A stretch of 64,000 nt of DNA, taken from Escherichia coli (GTDB lineage: Bacteria > Pseudomonadota > Gammaproteobacteria > Enterobacterales > Enterobacteriaceae). Shown piece by piece: positions 10,562 to 51,694 of the stretch. The notes below the pieces were generated by a model, which was not told the DNA's origin, ran no database searches, and saw only the letters and a program-made list of their open reading frames with translations. Position 1 is the first letter of the stretch. Every line of letters starts with the position of its first letter. Where the stretch lies: assembly GCF_030013595.1 (NCBI RefSeq), contig NZ_CP122768.1, one strand, 5' to 3'. The position numbers and the translations under genes were made by a program.

Positions 10562-11386
10562 ATGTCTCAGAACTTAGACGCAACCGCAATTAATCAAATC
10601 CATGCCCTTATTTCTGCTCAGAGTGTTAATGAAATTATCAGTAAGATTGGTGCCGATGCTGTGGCATTGCCTGAGAATTTCCGCATTCATGATCTGGAAA
10701 AATTTAATTTAAATCGCTTCCGTTTCCGTGGTGCACTTTCCACTGCCAGCATCGATGATTTTACCCGTTATTCTAAAGATCTTGCAGATGAAGGCACCCG
10801 CTGCTTTATCGATGCCGATAATATGCGTGCCGTCAGTGTGCTTAACCTGGGTACTATTGATGAGCCAGGTCACGCAGATAACACTGCCACTCTCAAACTG
10901 AAAAAGACAGCACCGTTCTCTGCTCTGTTGTCTGTTAACGGCGAGCGTAACTCCCAGAAGTCACTGGCAGAATGGATCGAAGACTGGGCCGACTACCTTG
11001 TGGGCTTTGATGCTAATGGTGACGCCATTCAAGCAACAAAAGCGGCTGCGGCAGTCCGTAAAATCACGATTGAAGCAAACCATACCGCTGATTTTGAAGA
11101 TAATGACTTCAGCGGCAAACGCTCCCTGATGGAGTCTGTCGAAGCGAAGACCAAAGACATTATGCCAGTGGCATTTGAATTTAAATGCGTTCCGTTTGAA
11201 GGTCTGAAAGAACGTCCGTTTAAATTACGCCTCAGCATTATCACTGGCGATCGTCCTGTACTGGTTCTGCGCATTATTCAGCTGGAAGCGGTGCAGGAAG
11301 AAATGGCTAACGAATTTCGTGATCTGCTTGTTGAGAAATTCAAAGACAGCAAAGTAGAAACCTTTATTGGTACTTTCACCGCCTGA
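10562..11386 (+). CDS. yfdQ: YfdQ family protein (DUF2303)
   Basis: 274 aa, same length and position as CPS-53 YfdQ; TGAGGA SD. Confidence 0.7.
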
Positions 11387-47523: not shown

Positions 47524-48633
<1,110 letters not shown>

Positions 48634-48695
48634 TGGGCGGTATTCTGAAACGGCGATTGTCGTGAGAACAAAATGGTTGCACCAGAATACAGATA

Positions 48696-48733
48696 TAAAA
48701 AAACCGACATGACAGTCGGTTTTTTTATTTTTT
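48696..48733 (+). terminator. Rho-independent terminator after mnmH
   Basis: aaaaaaaccgacatgacagtcggtttttttatttttt; a degenerate second copy lies at 49174-49203. Confidence 0.6.
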
Positions 48734-49044
48734 CCGCCCAAGACTTGGTGGTTCCGGGCAGAAATGAAACAGTCCTCATCTAGCAAGTGAATTATAAGTC
48801 AGGATGCCTACATATTCAAACAGCTATGTTGGCGATACAATCCCGACGCTAGTAGTGATACTGCCTCAAGGGATTACCGCAGTGCGGAAAAGTACTTTTA
48901 AGTCCTGGTCAGGATACAGGTGGTGCTGATTCTGGTGCTCTAATTTGGAGAGAGGCAGTCCTCATCTAGCACATGAAGAAAATCATAGTTACAGGCAACG
49001 TAAGGGTAAGCTGTGATTGTCTTTCTCCCTTAAGGGAGCAACGG

Positions 49045-49128
49045 ATGAAAACTTTTCTCGATAAAGTTCTCATCGTTCTTAAGGCGCTAATCGCGCTGCT
49101 GGAACTGATCCGTCAGTTTATTGAATAA
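49045..49128 (+). CDS. Candidate small protein, 27 aa amphipathic peptide (MKTFLDKVLIVLKALIALLELIRQFIE)
   Basis: AAGGGAG SD 6 nt upstream; SD lies in the palindrome ctccc-ttaa-gggag; strong hairpin aaggccgaagg...ccttcggcctt downstream; not in the ORF track because it is under 60 aa. Confidence 0.35.
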   Translation: MKTFLDKVLIVLKALIALLELIRQFIE

Positions 49129-49231
49129 CTGAGGAAACGTAGCTAAGGCCGAAGGTTTACCACCTTCGGCCTTTAAAAAAACCGACATGACAGTTGGTTT
49201 CATATTTATTGCCAAAATGCACACTGTTCAT

Positions 49232-49330
49232 GCCAGATGCGGCGTAAACGCCTTATCCGGCCTACACAATCTTGCAAAATCAATATATTGCACGCTCTTC
49301 GTAGGCCTGATAAGCGTAGCGCATCAGGCA
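49232..49330. repeat. REP/BIME palindromic elements
   Basis: gccagatgcggcgtaaacgccttatccggcc and aggcctgataagcgtagcgcatcaggc. Confidence 0.55.
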
Positions 49331-49345
49331 ATCTAACACCTGTCA

Positions 49346-51694
49346 TCACCCCGCAAACTGCCTGAACAGCGCCTTACCCTTAACCAGTCGCGCGCCCAGC
49401 CAGCCGCCGCAAAGCGACAGCAGCAGCGCACCGCTGCACGGCAGAACAATCCACAATCGCCAGTCTGGCTCCCACGGAAAATCAAACACTTTCGCCTGCA
49501 ACACTGCCAGCGCCGTTTCCGCACCAATTGCGGCCACCAGGCCAGAAACAAACCCGAGCATGGCGAACTCACACCACAACGTGGTACGCAGCAGTTTTTT
49601 CCCCGCACCGAGTGTGCGCCACACCACCAGCTCCTGATGACGCTGACGCATTCCCACCTGCACCTGTGCCAGCAACAGCAACATACCGCAGGCGGTGACC
49701 AGCACCACCATCACCTCCAGCGCCCGACTTACCTGCTCCAGCACCTGACCGACCTGTTTTAAAATCGCGCCAATGTCTAACAGGCTAATGGTAGGGAACT
49801 GGCGGTTGAGTTGCGTCAACATGCCGTTGCCATTCTCCCAGCGGAAACTGGTAAGCCAGCTCTGCGGTTGCCCGTCTAATGCCCCTTCCGGGAAAATAAA
49901 ATAGAAATTAGGCCGCAGACTTTCCCAGTCCACTTTGCGCAGGCTGGTCACTTTAGCGCGGAACTCCTGGGTATCGCCCATAAAGGTGACTGTATCGCCG
50001 AGGCCAACGTTTAAGCGTTTCGCCAGCCCCTCTTCCATCGACACTTCATCGGCTTTTGGCGGCCAGTTACCGGCGACAATCGGATTATGATCGGGCCGCG
50101 TATTTTGCCAGGTAAGATTAAGTTCGCGATTGAGCGCCTCATCTTCATTGCCTTCTGTCGGCTTGCCGTTAATCGCCGTCAGTCTCGCCCGCACCACCGG
50201 ATAAAATGATTCCGGGACTATCTGATGTTCCGCGAGGAACGCTTTTAGCGGTGCTACCTGTTCTGTGGCGATGTTGATTAAAAAGTAGTTCGGGCTTTCT
50301 GGCGGTAGCTGCTGTTGCCAGCGGTCGAGCAGATCGCCACGCAATACCAGCAACAGCGCCAGCAGCATAAAGGAGAGCGAAAATGCCGAAAGCTGGCTTA
50401 ACGTTGACCACGGCTGACGTAACAGGCGGCTAACCGCCAGGCGCAGAGGCAGCGATTTCAGCGTCATGCGGCGAAGTACATTCAGCAGCATGCTGCCACC
50501 CATTAATCCGGCGAGCAGCACCACAACCACCACACTGACAATCGGCAGATAAAACTTCAGCGGCCAGACGTTCGCTACCACATCATTACGTAATACGCGT
50601 AAAGGCTGCGTTGCCAGCAACAAGCGGTATGGTCGTAGCCCCACCAGCAGCGAGATAACCGTCATGGTGCCCAGCGCCCATAGCCACGGCCAGAGGCTGG
50701 CTGGCGGTAGTGCAGCAGGCAGAACGGGCTTGAGCAGCACCATCAACACGTTTTCGAACAACAGGCCTATCGCCCCGCCGGTAACGGCTGAAAGCGCCAG
50801 CACCATCAACCACTGACCGACGATTAGCTTACGCAGTTGCGCTCGCCCTGCCCCCAGCGTTTTGAGGATCGCCACCAGATCGTAGCGACTGCGACAGTAA
50901 TGATTCATCGCCACCGCCACCGCTGCCACTGCCAGCAGCAAGGTCAGAAGCGCCGAAAGCAGCAGGAACTGTTGCGAGCGTTCCATCGAGCGCCCCAGCG
51001 CGCCTTCGTCCTGTTCCAGACCGTACCAGCGTTGTTCGGGTTTAAGCTGGGGTAACAACCATTTCTCATAGCCGTCGAGCTGGTTCTCGTTGCCGCCGAA
51101 TTTATAGCGCCAGGTGACCCGACTTCCCGGCTGCACGGCTCCGGTTTTATCGACATCCGCCAGATTCATCATCAGACGCGGAGCCATCTGGAAGGGGTTA
51201 AAACCGGAATCCGGTTCCTGAATCACTTCTCCGGCAATCCGCAAGGTGGCATCACCCACGTCGATGGTGTCGCCTGTTTTCAGGTTAAGCAGTGCCATCA
51301 GGCGTGGGGCCAGCAATACGCTGCCCGCCTGCGGTTTCAGGCCAGGGGGATTAGTTTGCAGATCGCCATACATCGGGTAGATATCATCCACCGCTTTGAC
51401 GTTCGCCAGCTGCGGTGTGTCGCCTGCAAATGTCATGGTGGCGAAAGTCAGCTGCTTGCCGACTTTCAGGCCGCGCTTTTGCGCTTCCTCCAGCCACGCT
51501 TGCGGCACTTCGCGCGAACTGCGCAACGCCCGATCGCCCGCCATAAACTCCCGGCTTTGCTGGCTTAAGCCCTTCTCCATGCGATCGCTGATATTGCCCA
51601 GCGCCAGCACGCAGGCCACCGCCAGGCTTAGCGCCAGCCAGACAATTAATAGCGACGGCGAGCGCCATTCGCGCCAGAACCAACGTGCAATCAT
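49346..51694 (-). CDS. ybbP: ABC transporter permease YbbP (FtsX-like)
   Basis: 782 aa multi-pass membrane protein; 4-nt overlap with ybbA. Confidence 0.9.
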   Translation of the reverse strand: MIARWFWREWRSPSLLIVWLALSLAVACVLALGNISDRMEKGLSQQSREFMAGDRALRSSREVPQAWLEEAQKRGLKVGKQLTFATMTFAGDTPQLANVKAVDDIYPMYGDLQTNPPGLKPQAGSVLLAPRLMALLNLKTGDTIDVGDATLRIAGEVIQEPDSGFNPFQMAPRLMMNLADVDKTGAVQPGSRVTWRYKFGGNENQLDGYEKWLLPQLKPEQRWYGLEQDEGALGRSMERSQQFLLLSALLTLLLAVAAVAVAMNHYCRSRYDLVAILKTLGAGRAQLRKLIVGQWLMVLALSAVTGGAIGLLFENVLMVLLKPVLPAALPPASLWPWLWALGTMTVISLLVGLRPYRLLLATQPLRVLRNDVVANVWPLKFYLPIVSVVVVVLLAGLMGGSMLLNVLRRMTLKSLPLRLAVSRLLRQPWSTLSQLSAFSLSFMLLALLLVLRGDLLDRWQQQLPPESPNYFLINIATEQVAPLKAFLAEHQIVPESFYPVVRARLTAINGKPTEGNEDEALNRELNLTWQNTRPDHNPIVAGNWPPKADEVSMEEGLAKRLNVGLGDTVTFMGDTQEFRAKVTSLRKVDWESLRPNFYFIFPEGALDGQPQSWLTSFRWENGNGMLTQLNRQFPTISLLDIGAILKQVGQVLEQVSRALEVMVVLVTACGMLLLLAQVQVGMRQRHQELVVWRTLGAGKKLLRTTLWCEFAMLGFVSGLVAAIGAETALAVLQAKVFDFPWEPDWRLWIVLPCSGALLLSLCGGWLGARLVKGKALFRQFAG

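Follow-up and report, generated by a model that had tools for sequence, protein, structure and literature searches.

The 712-bp spacer between mnmH and ybbP in the window (the whole 64,000-nucleotide stretch of DNA analysed) is best explained, with a probability of about 0.7, as a chromosomal paralogue of dinQ/agrB (a dql module), which lies on a 570-bp insert at the rhsD site, works by the mechanism proposed below and has spread by recombination. The cassette is an ordinary element of an already known kind; its toxin gene is already annotated as 'dinQ' by RefSeq, and the partner sRNA is annotated in none of the RefSeq records examined. The parts of the module are the following.

48695–48728, both strands: bidirectional terminator hairpin, a perfect 14-bp palindrome with A and T runs that includes the first copy of repeat D1 (48696–48722); homologous to the agrA/agrB terminators of K-12
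48695–48783, minus strand (48783→48695): AgrB-like antitoxin sRNA gene; Rfam RF02891, 53.6 bits (gathering cut-off 40), full-length match 1–84
48754–48784, minus strand: antisense segment at the sRNA 5′ end, including the first copy of repeat D2 (48770–48791 on the plus strand); pairs with 48940–48970
48791–48819, minus strand: sRNA promoter, −35 TTGAAT (48819–48814), 17-bp spacer, −10 TATAAT (48796–48791); 10/12 matches
48834–48862, plus strand: candidate toxin promoter, −35 GATACA (48834–48839), 17-bp spacer, −10 GATACT (48857–48862); suggested by positional homology to the dinQ promoter in the K-12 alignment
48940–48971, plus strand: sRNA target site in the toxin mRNA 5′ UTR, identified by complementarity (second D2 copy, 48956–48977)
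49025–49038, plus strand: hairpin CTCCC-TTAA-GGGAG sequestering the Shine-Dalgarno sequence (SD, 49033–49038, 6 nt before the ATG); closed in minimum-energy folds
49045–49128, plus strand: toxin ORF of 27 amino acids, MKTFLDKVLIVLKALIALLELIRQFIE (DinQ-like, Dql); NCBIfam NF041472 toxin_DinQ, 40.9 bits (cut-off 30)
49145–49173, plus strand: toxin mRNA terminator hairpin with perfect 12-nt arms and compensatory changes across the family
49174–49200, plus strand: second D1 copy, a slightly degenerate sRNA-terminator hairpin abutting the toxin terminator; found by repeat search and assessed with shuffles

The minus-strand gene fits both an alignment of 13 AgrB-type sRNAs and their consensus fold: an antisense segment at the 5′ end, a stem-loop in the middle with CCACCAA in the loop, and the terminator. 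Its promoter was the sole promoter-like match in a scan of the region and lies 7 nt upstream of the start of the Rfam match, which implies a transcription start at about position 48784. OrzO-P, STnc370 and other sub-threshold Rfam matches on the terminator were judged to be terminator-driven noise, OrzO-P, on the wrong strand, scoring 25.3 bits where the gathering threshold is 60.

On the plus strand, the small ORF already seen in the spacer by the first-pass annotation is the toxin gene, whose product is identical on more than 1,000 contigs. The hydrophobic peptide bears the DinQ signature, and its NF041472 match covers residues 5–26 and all 22 profile positions, whereas the NCBIfam DqlB model scores 24.5 bits, under its cut-off of 35. 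An alternative ORF from an upstream ATG would span 48973–49128 (51 amino acids). With 3/6 and 4/6 consensus matches, the candidate toxin promoter is a weak one, under the threshold of the promoter scan. Compared with the family, the SD hairpin has changed in a compensatory way (CTCCAT/ATGGAG to CTCCCT/AGGGAG), and the three mRNA helices that include this hairpin were paired in 86.8% of the cells across 10 homologous mRNAs, against 78.8% in shuffles; 13 of the 28 pairs were changed on both sides, a level that none of 500 shuffles reached, and slid controls gave 37–59%. In predicted folds of the cassette mRNA the pairings 3:4 and 2:3 are formed, and the SD is still paired in 5′-truncated forms. 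A possible 5′ partner, ACUGCCUC (48860–48867), overlaps the putative −10 box, and element 1 of the dinQ 5′ UTR is deleted in the cassette; folding of the cassette mRNA gave no convincing reproduction of the dinQ +1/+44 structural switch.

Two direct repeats connect these genes. D1 (TAAAAAAACCGACATGACAGT[C/T]GGTTT) occurs at 48696–48722 and 49174–49200, with an offset of 478 bp and an identity of 26/27; an ungapped 40-nt extension, of which the additional 13 nt are T-rich, is 83% identical, and no D1-like match appeared in 100 shuffles of the window. D2 (CAGTCCTCATCTAGCA) starts at 48770 and 48956 (offset 186 bp), with 16 nt exact and 20/22 identical when extended, and by our own estimate a 712-bp sequence would contain about 6e−5 such pairs by chance. 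A chance origin of the repeats was rejected from the shuffles and from how long the exact match is. The first reading of D1, as the mnmH terminator followed 470 bp on by a degenerate copy, holds for the existence and spacing of the two copies, but the first of them is primarily the terminator of the minus-strand sRNA gene; it may also terminate mnmH, since a perfect 14-bp palindrome stands between an A-run and a T-run. Likewise, the repeat described as '(gg)'-prefixed and about 185 bp apart is present twice, with the 'gg' on the second copy only, and D2 in fact consists of the antisense segment of the sRNA and the stretch of toxin 5′ UTR that it targets. A repeat serving as pairing site in this way has been described for dinQ/agrAB (PMC3567139). 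An equivalent of the second D1 copy after the toxin terminator is absent from the Serratia, Pantoea and K-12 homologues. Within 5,426 complete E. coli genomes the hairpin is confined to those bearing the cassette and occurs in at most two places per genome, both in the mnmH-ybbP locus, so that the suggested search for further genomic copies returned none and a dispersed repeat or MITE family was rejected.

Over 31 nt, the predicted sRNA/mRNA duplex comprises 20 Watson-Crick and 6 G·U pairs, 15–16 nt of them contiguous, and has an energy of −47.0 kcal/mol compared with −22.5 ± 2.6 in 500 shuffles, the best of which reached −34.0. The target site aligns with the AgrB-binding region of dinQ published in PMC5066626. 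In terms of complementarity the cassette sRNA (26/31 with wobble pairs, −47) ranks below AgrB (30/31, −58.2), which is functional toward dinQ, and above AgrA (25/31, −42.7), which is non-functional (PMC3567139). With only 20 of 31 positions in Watson-Crick pairs this intermediate complementarity means that effective repression is not assured. Little cross-pairing is predicted between K-12 AgrB and the cassette mRNA (−27.2 kcal/mol, near the shuffled background); for the cassette sRNA with canonical dinQ the predicted energy is −35.5 kcal/mol.

In the mechanism we propose, a constitutive sigma-70 promoter would drive an AgrB-like sRNA of about 90 nt from the minus strand, and the plus strand would give an mRNA of about 300 nt in which a long, structured 5′ UTR, with the SD sequestered in a hairpin, precedes a 27-codon ORF, the product of which is predicted to be a membrane peptide with a single helix. 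By analogy with AgrB/dinQ and agrB/dqlB, the 5′ end of the sRNA would pair with the 5′ UTR at 48940–48971, and the resulting block of translation and RNase III cleavage would keep a presumably toxic peptide silent. Both peptide toxicity with sRNA neutralisation and the dependence of antitoxin function on base pairing have been established experimentally for dinQ/agrB (PMC3567139) and for dqlB/agrB of pOXA-48 (PMC12365149).

The cassette is colinear with the K-12 arsR-gor segment through the agrA sRNA, promoter, 5′ UTR, dinQ ORF and terminator. In both loci the sRNA gene lies upstream, on the opposite strand and without overlapping the toxin gene, and encodes an AgrB-type sRNA made up of an antisense segment at the 5′ end, a hairpin with a CCACCAA loop and a AAAAAACCGAC...GTCGGTTTTTT terminator; the long 5′ UTRs share the conserved blocks AAGTCCTGG, GGTGGTGC and GTGACAGGCA, followed by an SD-sequestering hairpin, a 27-amino-acid peptide with the core IVLxALIALLELIR and homologous terminators. 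At about 65% DNA identity, and located between mnmH and ybbP instead of arsR and gor, the cassette is therefore a paralogue of dinQ. It differs from the K-12 locus in having one sRNA gene instead of two and an ATG instead of a GTG start codon, and its peptide is two residues longer at the N-terminus and three shorter near the C-terminus (…ELIRQFIE vs. …ELIRFLLQLLN). The type I toxin-antitoxin identity of the cassette had been overlooked by the first-pass annotation. A canonical dinQ-type match was present in 5,415 of the 5,426 genomes, in most cases at the annotated dinQ gene; the nine cassette genomes listed have two dinQ-type places each, and Escherichia sp. E1V33 has both loci.

A further difference concerns regulation. 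The K-12 dinQ locus has a LexA operator, while the spacer contains neither CTGT-N8-ACAG at one mismatch or fewer nor CTG-N10-CAG, and the K-12 LexA box TACTGTATGATTATCCAGTTA aligns with CTAGTAGTGATACT plus a 7-nt gap in the cassette. The label "damage-inducible" is thus unsupported here, and in the lack of the dinQ operator the module is probably not SOS-induced, so that we infer from sequence its independence of LexA. As a correction to annotation, the gene called 'damage-inducible DinQ' by RefSeq is a paralogue with no LexA box, and a second, probably non-SOS DinQ-like toxin in roughly a quarter of E. coli could matter for work on persistence or membrane stress that assumes the K-12 genes.

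In Kristiansen et al. 2016 (PMC5066626), dql genes, in the groups dqlA and dqlB, are described from chromosomes and plasmids of Enterobacteriaceae, sometimes beside dinQ, and 14 Dql sequences are listed. They resemble the cassette as dinQ homologues away from arsR-gor that co-occur with dinQ in one genome; like it, dql genes have their own sigma-70 promoter, SD and terminator, with an AgrB-like sRNA complementary to the 5′ UTR. Salmonella plasmid DqlB peptides have an insertion of about 7 residues that is missing from the cassette peptide, which passes the DinQ and not the DqlB cut-off. Among the loci retrieved the closest relatives are on large Serratia contigs (76% DNA identity, toxin VKTLIDKVLIVLKALVALLELIRQFID), where the sRNA-mRNA complementarity is near-perfect over about 33 nt. 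Relatives with an AgrB-like sRNA were found on 1,669 plasmids, and scanning genome contigs with GCGCTGCTGGAACTGATCCG gave 70 matches, most of them chance matches in GC-rich genomes and only about 10 true family members. The zorO-orzO, shoB-ohsC and tisB-istR1 systems share with the cassette a small hydrophobic toxin and an sRNA, encoded divergently and without overlap, that base-pairs to the long 5′ UTR of the toxin mRNA, but their peptide families are different and gave no sequence-family match; strain-variable copy number is a further common trait (PMC5066626, PMC11264685).

An inert, decaying relic, in which the toxin is unexpressed or non-toxic, the sRNA is an orphan and the cassette persists only through its recent arrival, is an unlikely but still serious reading. 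It could draw on the sRNA-mRNA complementarity, which is lower than in the Serratia relatives, on the weak toxin promoter and on IS elements inserted within or next to the module. In addition, about 190 genomes have lost the target site, SD and start codon through a 108-bp deletion and have kept the sRNA, indicating that the toxin is dispensable and that the module may be decaying. Yet the retention of the sRNA in this toxin-null allele is also what would be expected if prior loss of the antitoxin were harmful, and the ORF, SD hairpin, terminator and sRNA promoter of the window are all intact. The compensatory double change in the SD hairpin speaks against decay as well, and so do the three ORF substitutions with a checkable coding effect (E2348/69, E1V33), all at third codon positions; the E2348/69 toxin is WP_001308457.1, the same accession as at loci with no ORF substitution. 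An allele with the toxin start deleted and the sRNA retained is thus a common one.

The placement of the paralogue was examined through the surrounding locus, for which four further features are needed.

47539–48633, plus strand: mnmH (tRNA 2-selenouridine synthase), left flanking core gene; ORF, annotated mnmH in the identical strain HCP5S3_I2
48647–49217, no strand: accessory insert of 570 bp (ends ±1 nt), missing from empty-site alleles; alignment with the 140-, 240- and 58-bp spacer alleles
49226–49330, no strand: REP/BIME palindromic units; sub-threshold Rfam matches to the REP-derived naRNA4 and ES036, allele alignment
49346–51694, minus strand: ybbP (ABC transporter permease), right flanking core gene; ORF and annotation

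By the ORF calls mnmH ends at 48633 and ybbP at 49346, which bears out the earlier observation that the two genes are only about 710 bp apart with rhsD absent: no rhsD-flank sequence was found in the spacer. Inspection of the K-12 locus also confirmed that the rhsD island lies there between ybbP and selU/mnmH. This island (about 7.3 kb, with rhsD, ybbC, pseudogenes and the IS-like ylbG) occupies the same interval, and its left junction falls 1–3 nt from that of the cassette. The proposed comparison with the rhsD flanks of K-12 yielded no homology, neither the insert nor the REP spacer matching anything in the K-12 locus. A leftover of an rhsD deletion was rejected, as homology to the K-12 island and flanks ends about 12–17 nt past the mnmH stop. 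A BLAST search of the K-12 IS (ylbG) against the IS of E2348/69 found no similarity, with IS coordinates that were slightly mis-set and covered most of the element.

The spacer exists in alleles of 712, 604, 240, 140 and 58 bp, the last three being empty sites, so that both the occupied and the empty alleles sought in E. coli genomes were found. The cassette core is present in 1,326 of the 5,426 complete genomes (approximately 24%) and is absent from 76% and from K-12; it occurs at a median of one place per genome, in all cases chromosomal and at the mnmH-ybbP site, and is never found beside a K-12-type rhsD island, the two being mutually exclusive in this data set. The segment is thus not the intergenic sequence conserved in most E. 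coli, rhsD carriers included, that had been considered as the alternative. The insert holds the whole toxin-antitoxin module, both copies of the 27-nt hairpin and both D2 copies. The empty-site junction is TGATGGGGGATTCT joined to GTGCACGCTGTTCATG; empty alleles read TGATGGGGGATTCT followed directly by GTGCACGCTG, with no copy of D1 or D2, and the insert junctions have neither target duplication nor microhomology. The REP/BIME stretch is ancestral spacer, kept in the 140- and 240-bp alleles and as a fragment only in the 58-bp allele. The suspected integration or recombination footprint is therefore real as a 570-bp insertion polymorphism, but the repeats do not bracket it: with both hairpin copies internal to the insert and none at the empty site, they are not a target-site duplication.

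These data leave practically no probability to ordinary intergenic DNA, that is, a spacer left by an rhsD deletion with repeats owing to chance or low-complexity terminator similarity. Terminator hairpins with A/T runs are common and REP elements do fill the right part of the spacer, but both repeats are far beyond chance, both genes score above the thresholds of curated family models, the K-12 rhsD flanks have no homology to the spacer and most genomes lack the segment altogether.

Among nine carriers, the mean pairwise difference was 0.57% in the insert compared with 3.6% in mnmH and 3.0% in ybbP, i.e., the insert is 5–6 times less diverse. In E2348/69 the insert is 99.5% identical to that of the window, whereas its flanks have 0–8 differences from empty-site strains and 20–23 from the window. 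At least three flank haplotypes and a separate species-level Escherichia lineage have the insert at exactly the same site, and on the mnmH side the tract of low divergence ends 21–187 bp from the insert, varying by lineage. The low diversity of the insert and the varying edges of the shared tract together point to a recent spread by homologous recombination. The insert has passed between diverged flank haplotypes, and the cassette arrived in Escherichia later than the divergence of the haplotypes around it; its movement between lineages would have relied on homologous recombination within the mnmH and ybbP flanks. An identical plasmid copy as donor was rejected, because the plasmid-database matches at ≥ 99% were only mislabelled chromosomes of 1.2–4.9 Mb, and true plasmids are about 70% identical to the cassette, in the toxin-mRNA half only.

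Could the module instead have come in as a mobile element, site-specific or hairpin-mediated (IS200/IS605- or REP/RAYT-type), with the 27-nt hairpins as recognition structures? Near-identical direct hairpins close to both ends of the insert (49 nt away on the left, 17 nt on the right) would suit such an element, as would the identical site across haplotypes and lineages, the clean junctions and the nearly coincident left junction of the K-12 island. We consider it very improbable, because the left hairpin is the conserved AgrB-family terminator present in every homologue, the hairpin is found nowhere else in the E. coli genomes searched and the cassette always occupies one site; the variable tract ends in mnmH are expected of homologous recombination and not of precise insertion, and the spacer has no recombinase ORF, transposase or terminal inverted repeat. 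It is likewise improbable that the cassette is a recent LexA-independent Dql import spreading at an rhsD hot spot with the duplicated hairpin as the scar of hairpin-templated (copy-choice or single-strand) capture; if true, such capture would be a transposase-free route to portable type I toxin-antitoxin modules. On the preferred reading, a dql paralogue spread by recombination, the rhsD site is a hot spot with three states: empty, toxin-antitoxin cassette or Rhs island. Next to it, the ybbP gene of the window has an in-frame deletion of 66 bp.

The mnmH–ybbP spacer measures 712 bp in the window, in agreement with the ~710-bp gap of the first-pass annotation, and is 100% identical to that of strain HCP5S3_I2. 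The absence of rhsD was likewise borne out (the K-12 interval carries rhsD, ybbC, ylbH, ybbD, ylbI and ylbG), and both repeat pairs and the small ORF were recovered:

Features of the mnmH–ybbP region (window positions)
47539-48633, plus strand: mnmH
48696-48722 and 49174-49200: D1, 27-nt hairpin repeat TAAAAAAACCGACATGACAGT[C/T]GGTTT, copies 26/27 identical and 478 bp apart
48770 and 48956: D2, repeat CAGTCCTCATCTAGCA, copies 186 bp apart, 20/22 identical on extension
48819-48814 (-35 TTGAAT) and 48796-48791 (-10 TATAAT), minus strand: sRNA promoter, 17-bp spacer, the sole promoter-like site in the region
49045-49128: small ORF of 27 aa, or 51 aa (48973-49128) from an upstream ATG
49346-51694, minus strand: ybbP

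Shuffling the window 100 times never produced a D1-like match. An Rfam scan identified full-length AgrB, the antitoxin sRNA of DinQ, on the minus strand (48783→48695; 53.6 bits, gathering score 40), and the predicted sRNA start, ~7 nt past the -10, coincides with the first position of this match. The product of the 27-aa ORF, MKTFLDKVLIVLKALIALLELIRQFIE, matched NCBIfam toxin_DinQ (NF041472; 40.9 bits, cut-off 30) and scored 24.5 with the DqlB model, under its cut-off of 35; RefSeq labels it 'damage-inducible type I toxin DinQ' in HCP5S3_I2 and the other carriers examined, and the exact protein is present in >1,000 contigs. In K-12, the agrA-dinQ portion of the arsR-gor region gives a colinear alignment with the whole stretch bounded by the sRNA and toxin terminators. 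This cassette is thus recognizable as a predicted DinQ-like type I toxin-antitoxin module of a kind already catalogued. It is a real accessory element, to whose known kind we add the sRNA partner (left unannotated in the RefSeq records that were examined), the lack of a LexA box, a three-state hot spot at mnmH–ybbP, a toxin-null deletion allele and evidence of recent recombinational spread. A 41-aa ORF (48804-48929, plus strand) across the divergent promoter region, called 'hypothetical protein' in some RefSeq records, had no NCBIfam match and is probably spurious.

The first-pass annotation had read the repeats as an integration or recombination footprint, which was not upheld. D2 copy 1 lies within the sRNA gene, transcribed from the minus strand, and copy 2 within the 5' UTR of the plus-strand toxin transcript, so that a direct repeat in DNA becomes antisense complementarity in RNA; the 'agrAB repeat' of dinQ has the same arrangement (PMC3567139). 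Across the 31 nt that correspond to the published segment, sRNA and mRNA form 20 Watson-Crick and 6 G·U pairs, with 15-16 contiguous pairs at the sRNA 5' end. For the first 33 nt of the sRNA, the computed duplex with the mRNA reached -47.0 kcal/mol (500 shuffled sRNA segments: mean -22.5±2.6, best -34.0 kcal/mol); for scale, AgrB×dinQ gave -58.2 and AgrA×dinQ -42.7 kcal/mol, pairs that match at 30/31 and 25/31 positions, the former functional and the latter non-functional in vivo (PMC3567139). D1 copy 1 is the predicted sRNA terminator, homologous to those of agrA and agrB; it forms a perfect 14-bp palindrome flanked by A and T runs, a symmetry that could let it work in either direction and perhaps stop mnmH transcription as well. 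D1 copy 2 immediately follows the hairpin of the toxin terminator (49145-49173) and is lacking in the Serratia relatives, compared with which it looks like a 24-nt insertion in the terminator tail (GGCCTTTAA/…/CATATTT in the window cassette vs. GGCCTTTAACATTT). D2 is therefore the predicted working part of the module and D1 a duplicated terminator hairpin, and neither is an integration scar.

The RNA architecture was compared across relatives. Thirteen AgrB-type sRNAs (from the window, K-12, Serratia, Pantoea and plasmids) share a variable 5' segment, a stem-loop with a CCACCAA loop and a terminator, a plan that the window copy fits. Ten toxin mRNAs aligned well across the 5' UTR, and three helices were named and counted on this alignment (5' UTR stem-loop, SD hairpin, terminator): 86.8% of their cells were paired vs. 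78.8% in shuffles, 13 pairs had changed on both sides (reached in 0/500 shuffles), and slid controls gave 37-59% pairing. Both strands of the SD hairpin have changed in a compensatory manner in the window (CTCCCT/AGGGAG vs. CTCCAT/ATGGAG in the family). Element 1, present in dinQ, is deleted from the window cassette; a possible substitute, ACUGCCUC (48860-48867), overlaps a putative -10 (GATACT, 48857-48862), and in 5'-truncated folds, examined for the published +1/+44 switch, the SD was still paired. At 48936-48944 the family-conserved GTGCTCTGG-CCGG has become GTGCTCTAATTTGG in this lineage. The change gives rise to TGcTCTAAT, which resembles an extended -10 and lies ~7 nt before the sRNA target; a second, shorter toxin transcript is therefore conceivable. 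In the alignment, the LexA box of K-12 dinQ falls opposite unrelated sequence and a 7-nt gap in the window cassette. Since no LexA operator was found in the spacer (neither CTGT-N8-ACAG with ≤1 mismatch nor CTG-N10-CAG), the 'damage-inducible' label is not supported for this paralogue.

A canonical dinQ-type match was found in 5,415 of 5,426 E. coli genomes, and the nine cassette genomes listed matched at two places each, hence the cassette is an extra dinQ paralogue. Kristiansen et al. 2016 (PMC5066626) defined the dql (dinQ-like) family on chromosomes and plasmids, at times beside dinQ, and in 2025 a plasmid-borne dqlB/agrB pair was shown to act as an addiction module (PMC12365149). Relatives of dinQ or dqlB with ~70% identity to the toxin half are found on 1,669 PLSDB plasmids, most of them conjugative, and have one to three AgrB-like sRNA genes upstream, at times in tandem arrays. 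One Salmonella IncFII plasmid (L011, 1879-3473) has two dqlB genes in tandem, preceded by two and three such sRNA genes respectively, and sRNA copy number in the family is therefore fluid. One scan of species-representative genomes recovered the same insert at the same site in Escherichia sp. E1V33 (99.3% identity), together with canonical dinQ. Among the loci retrieved, the nearest relatives outside Escherichia were Serratia oryzae (toxin VKTLIDKVLIVLKALVALLELIRQFID) and Serratia sp. H1w, with 75-76% DNA identity and, unlike the window, near-perfect sRNA complementarity over ~33 nt.

A two-flank query (mnmH and ybbP ≤700 bp apart) retrieved 786 genomes, with spacers of 604, 240, 140 and 58 bp. 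Both empty and occupied alleles exist: the allele alignment shows an empty site, TGATGGGGGATTCT/GTGCACGCTGTTCATG, with REP sequence after it, and the insert spans 570 bp (48647/8-49216/7). The D1 and D2 copies all lie inside it, which rules them out as a target-site duplication, and the junctions showed no target-site duplication, microhomology or terminal inverted repeat.

Approximate allele counts among 5,426 E. coli genomes
Cassette core present: 1,326 genomes (24%)
Cassette core with 108-bp deletion: ~190 genomes (1,314 − 1,124)
Empty site: ~600 genomes (786 − 190)
mnmH and ybbP further apart (K-12 type): ~3,500 genomes (remainder)

With its core in only 24% of genomes and an insertion polymorphism at the site, the segment is not conserved intergenic sequence. 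The 27-nt hairpin was confined to genomes with the cassette, with no more than two copies in each. The 604-bp allele reflects a 108-bp deletion (48957-49064) between AGTCCTCATC and AGTTCTCATC (L003, L009) that takes the sRNA target, SD, start codon and first 6-7 codons but spares the sRNA gene; some RefSeq records still call a 25-aa 'dinQ' on it, apparently from an ATT start. Neither the insert nor the REP spacer is represented in K-12. The K-12 rhsD island begins with an IS-like ylbG segment (TGTATTAGTC…; L004 ~11100-11130), and this left junction falls, after ATTCTG, 1-3 nt from that of the insert (48642-48648), thus the three structural alleles have a nearly common breakpoint. In E2348/69 (L002 4907-6001), a 1,095-bp IS481-family IS with a 6-bp target duplication (ACAGCT; window-equivalent 48820-48825) separates the sRNA -35 from the putative toxin promoter and thereby splits the divergent promoters, with both genes undisrupted. 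In LHM10-1 (L088 783-1480), IS1A is annotated at the mnmH 3' end, between mnmH and the cassette.

Diversity in nine cassette-bearing loci
Insert: mean pairwise difference 0.57%, segregating sites 14/573
mnmH: 3.6%, 115/1,095
ybbP (3' 1,055 nt): 3.0%, 92/1,055

Between E2348/69 and the window, the insert differed at 3/573 positions and mnmH at 47/1,095 (Fisher p = 2.6e-6). When the last 470 nt of either flanking gene were compared, E2348/69 showed 0-8 differences from the empty-site strains LI60C3/MS8345 and 20-23 from the window, with which it shares an insert of 99.5% identity. Divergence switched from low to high 21-187 bp from the insert on the left, depending on lineage, and at or just inside the ybbP 3' end on the right. 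These data are most simply read as a recent acquisition of the cassette, which then spread laterally by homologous recombination in the flanking sequence, a route favoured over site-specific insertion. mnmH (47539-48633) and the ybbP 3' half (49346-50400) form unusually deep E. coli haplotypes (3-5% pairwise, vs. L002, L062 and L083-L088), consistent with alleles that have long been maintained next to a hypervariable hot spot. The ybbP of the window also has an in-frame gap of 66 bp (22 codons) at ~50484-50497, between two CAGCAGCAT repeats; HCP5S3_I2, which is otherwise nearly identical, and the other loci compared retain these codons. The window's product therefore has 782 aa, not 804 aa.
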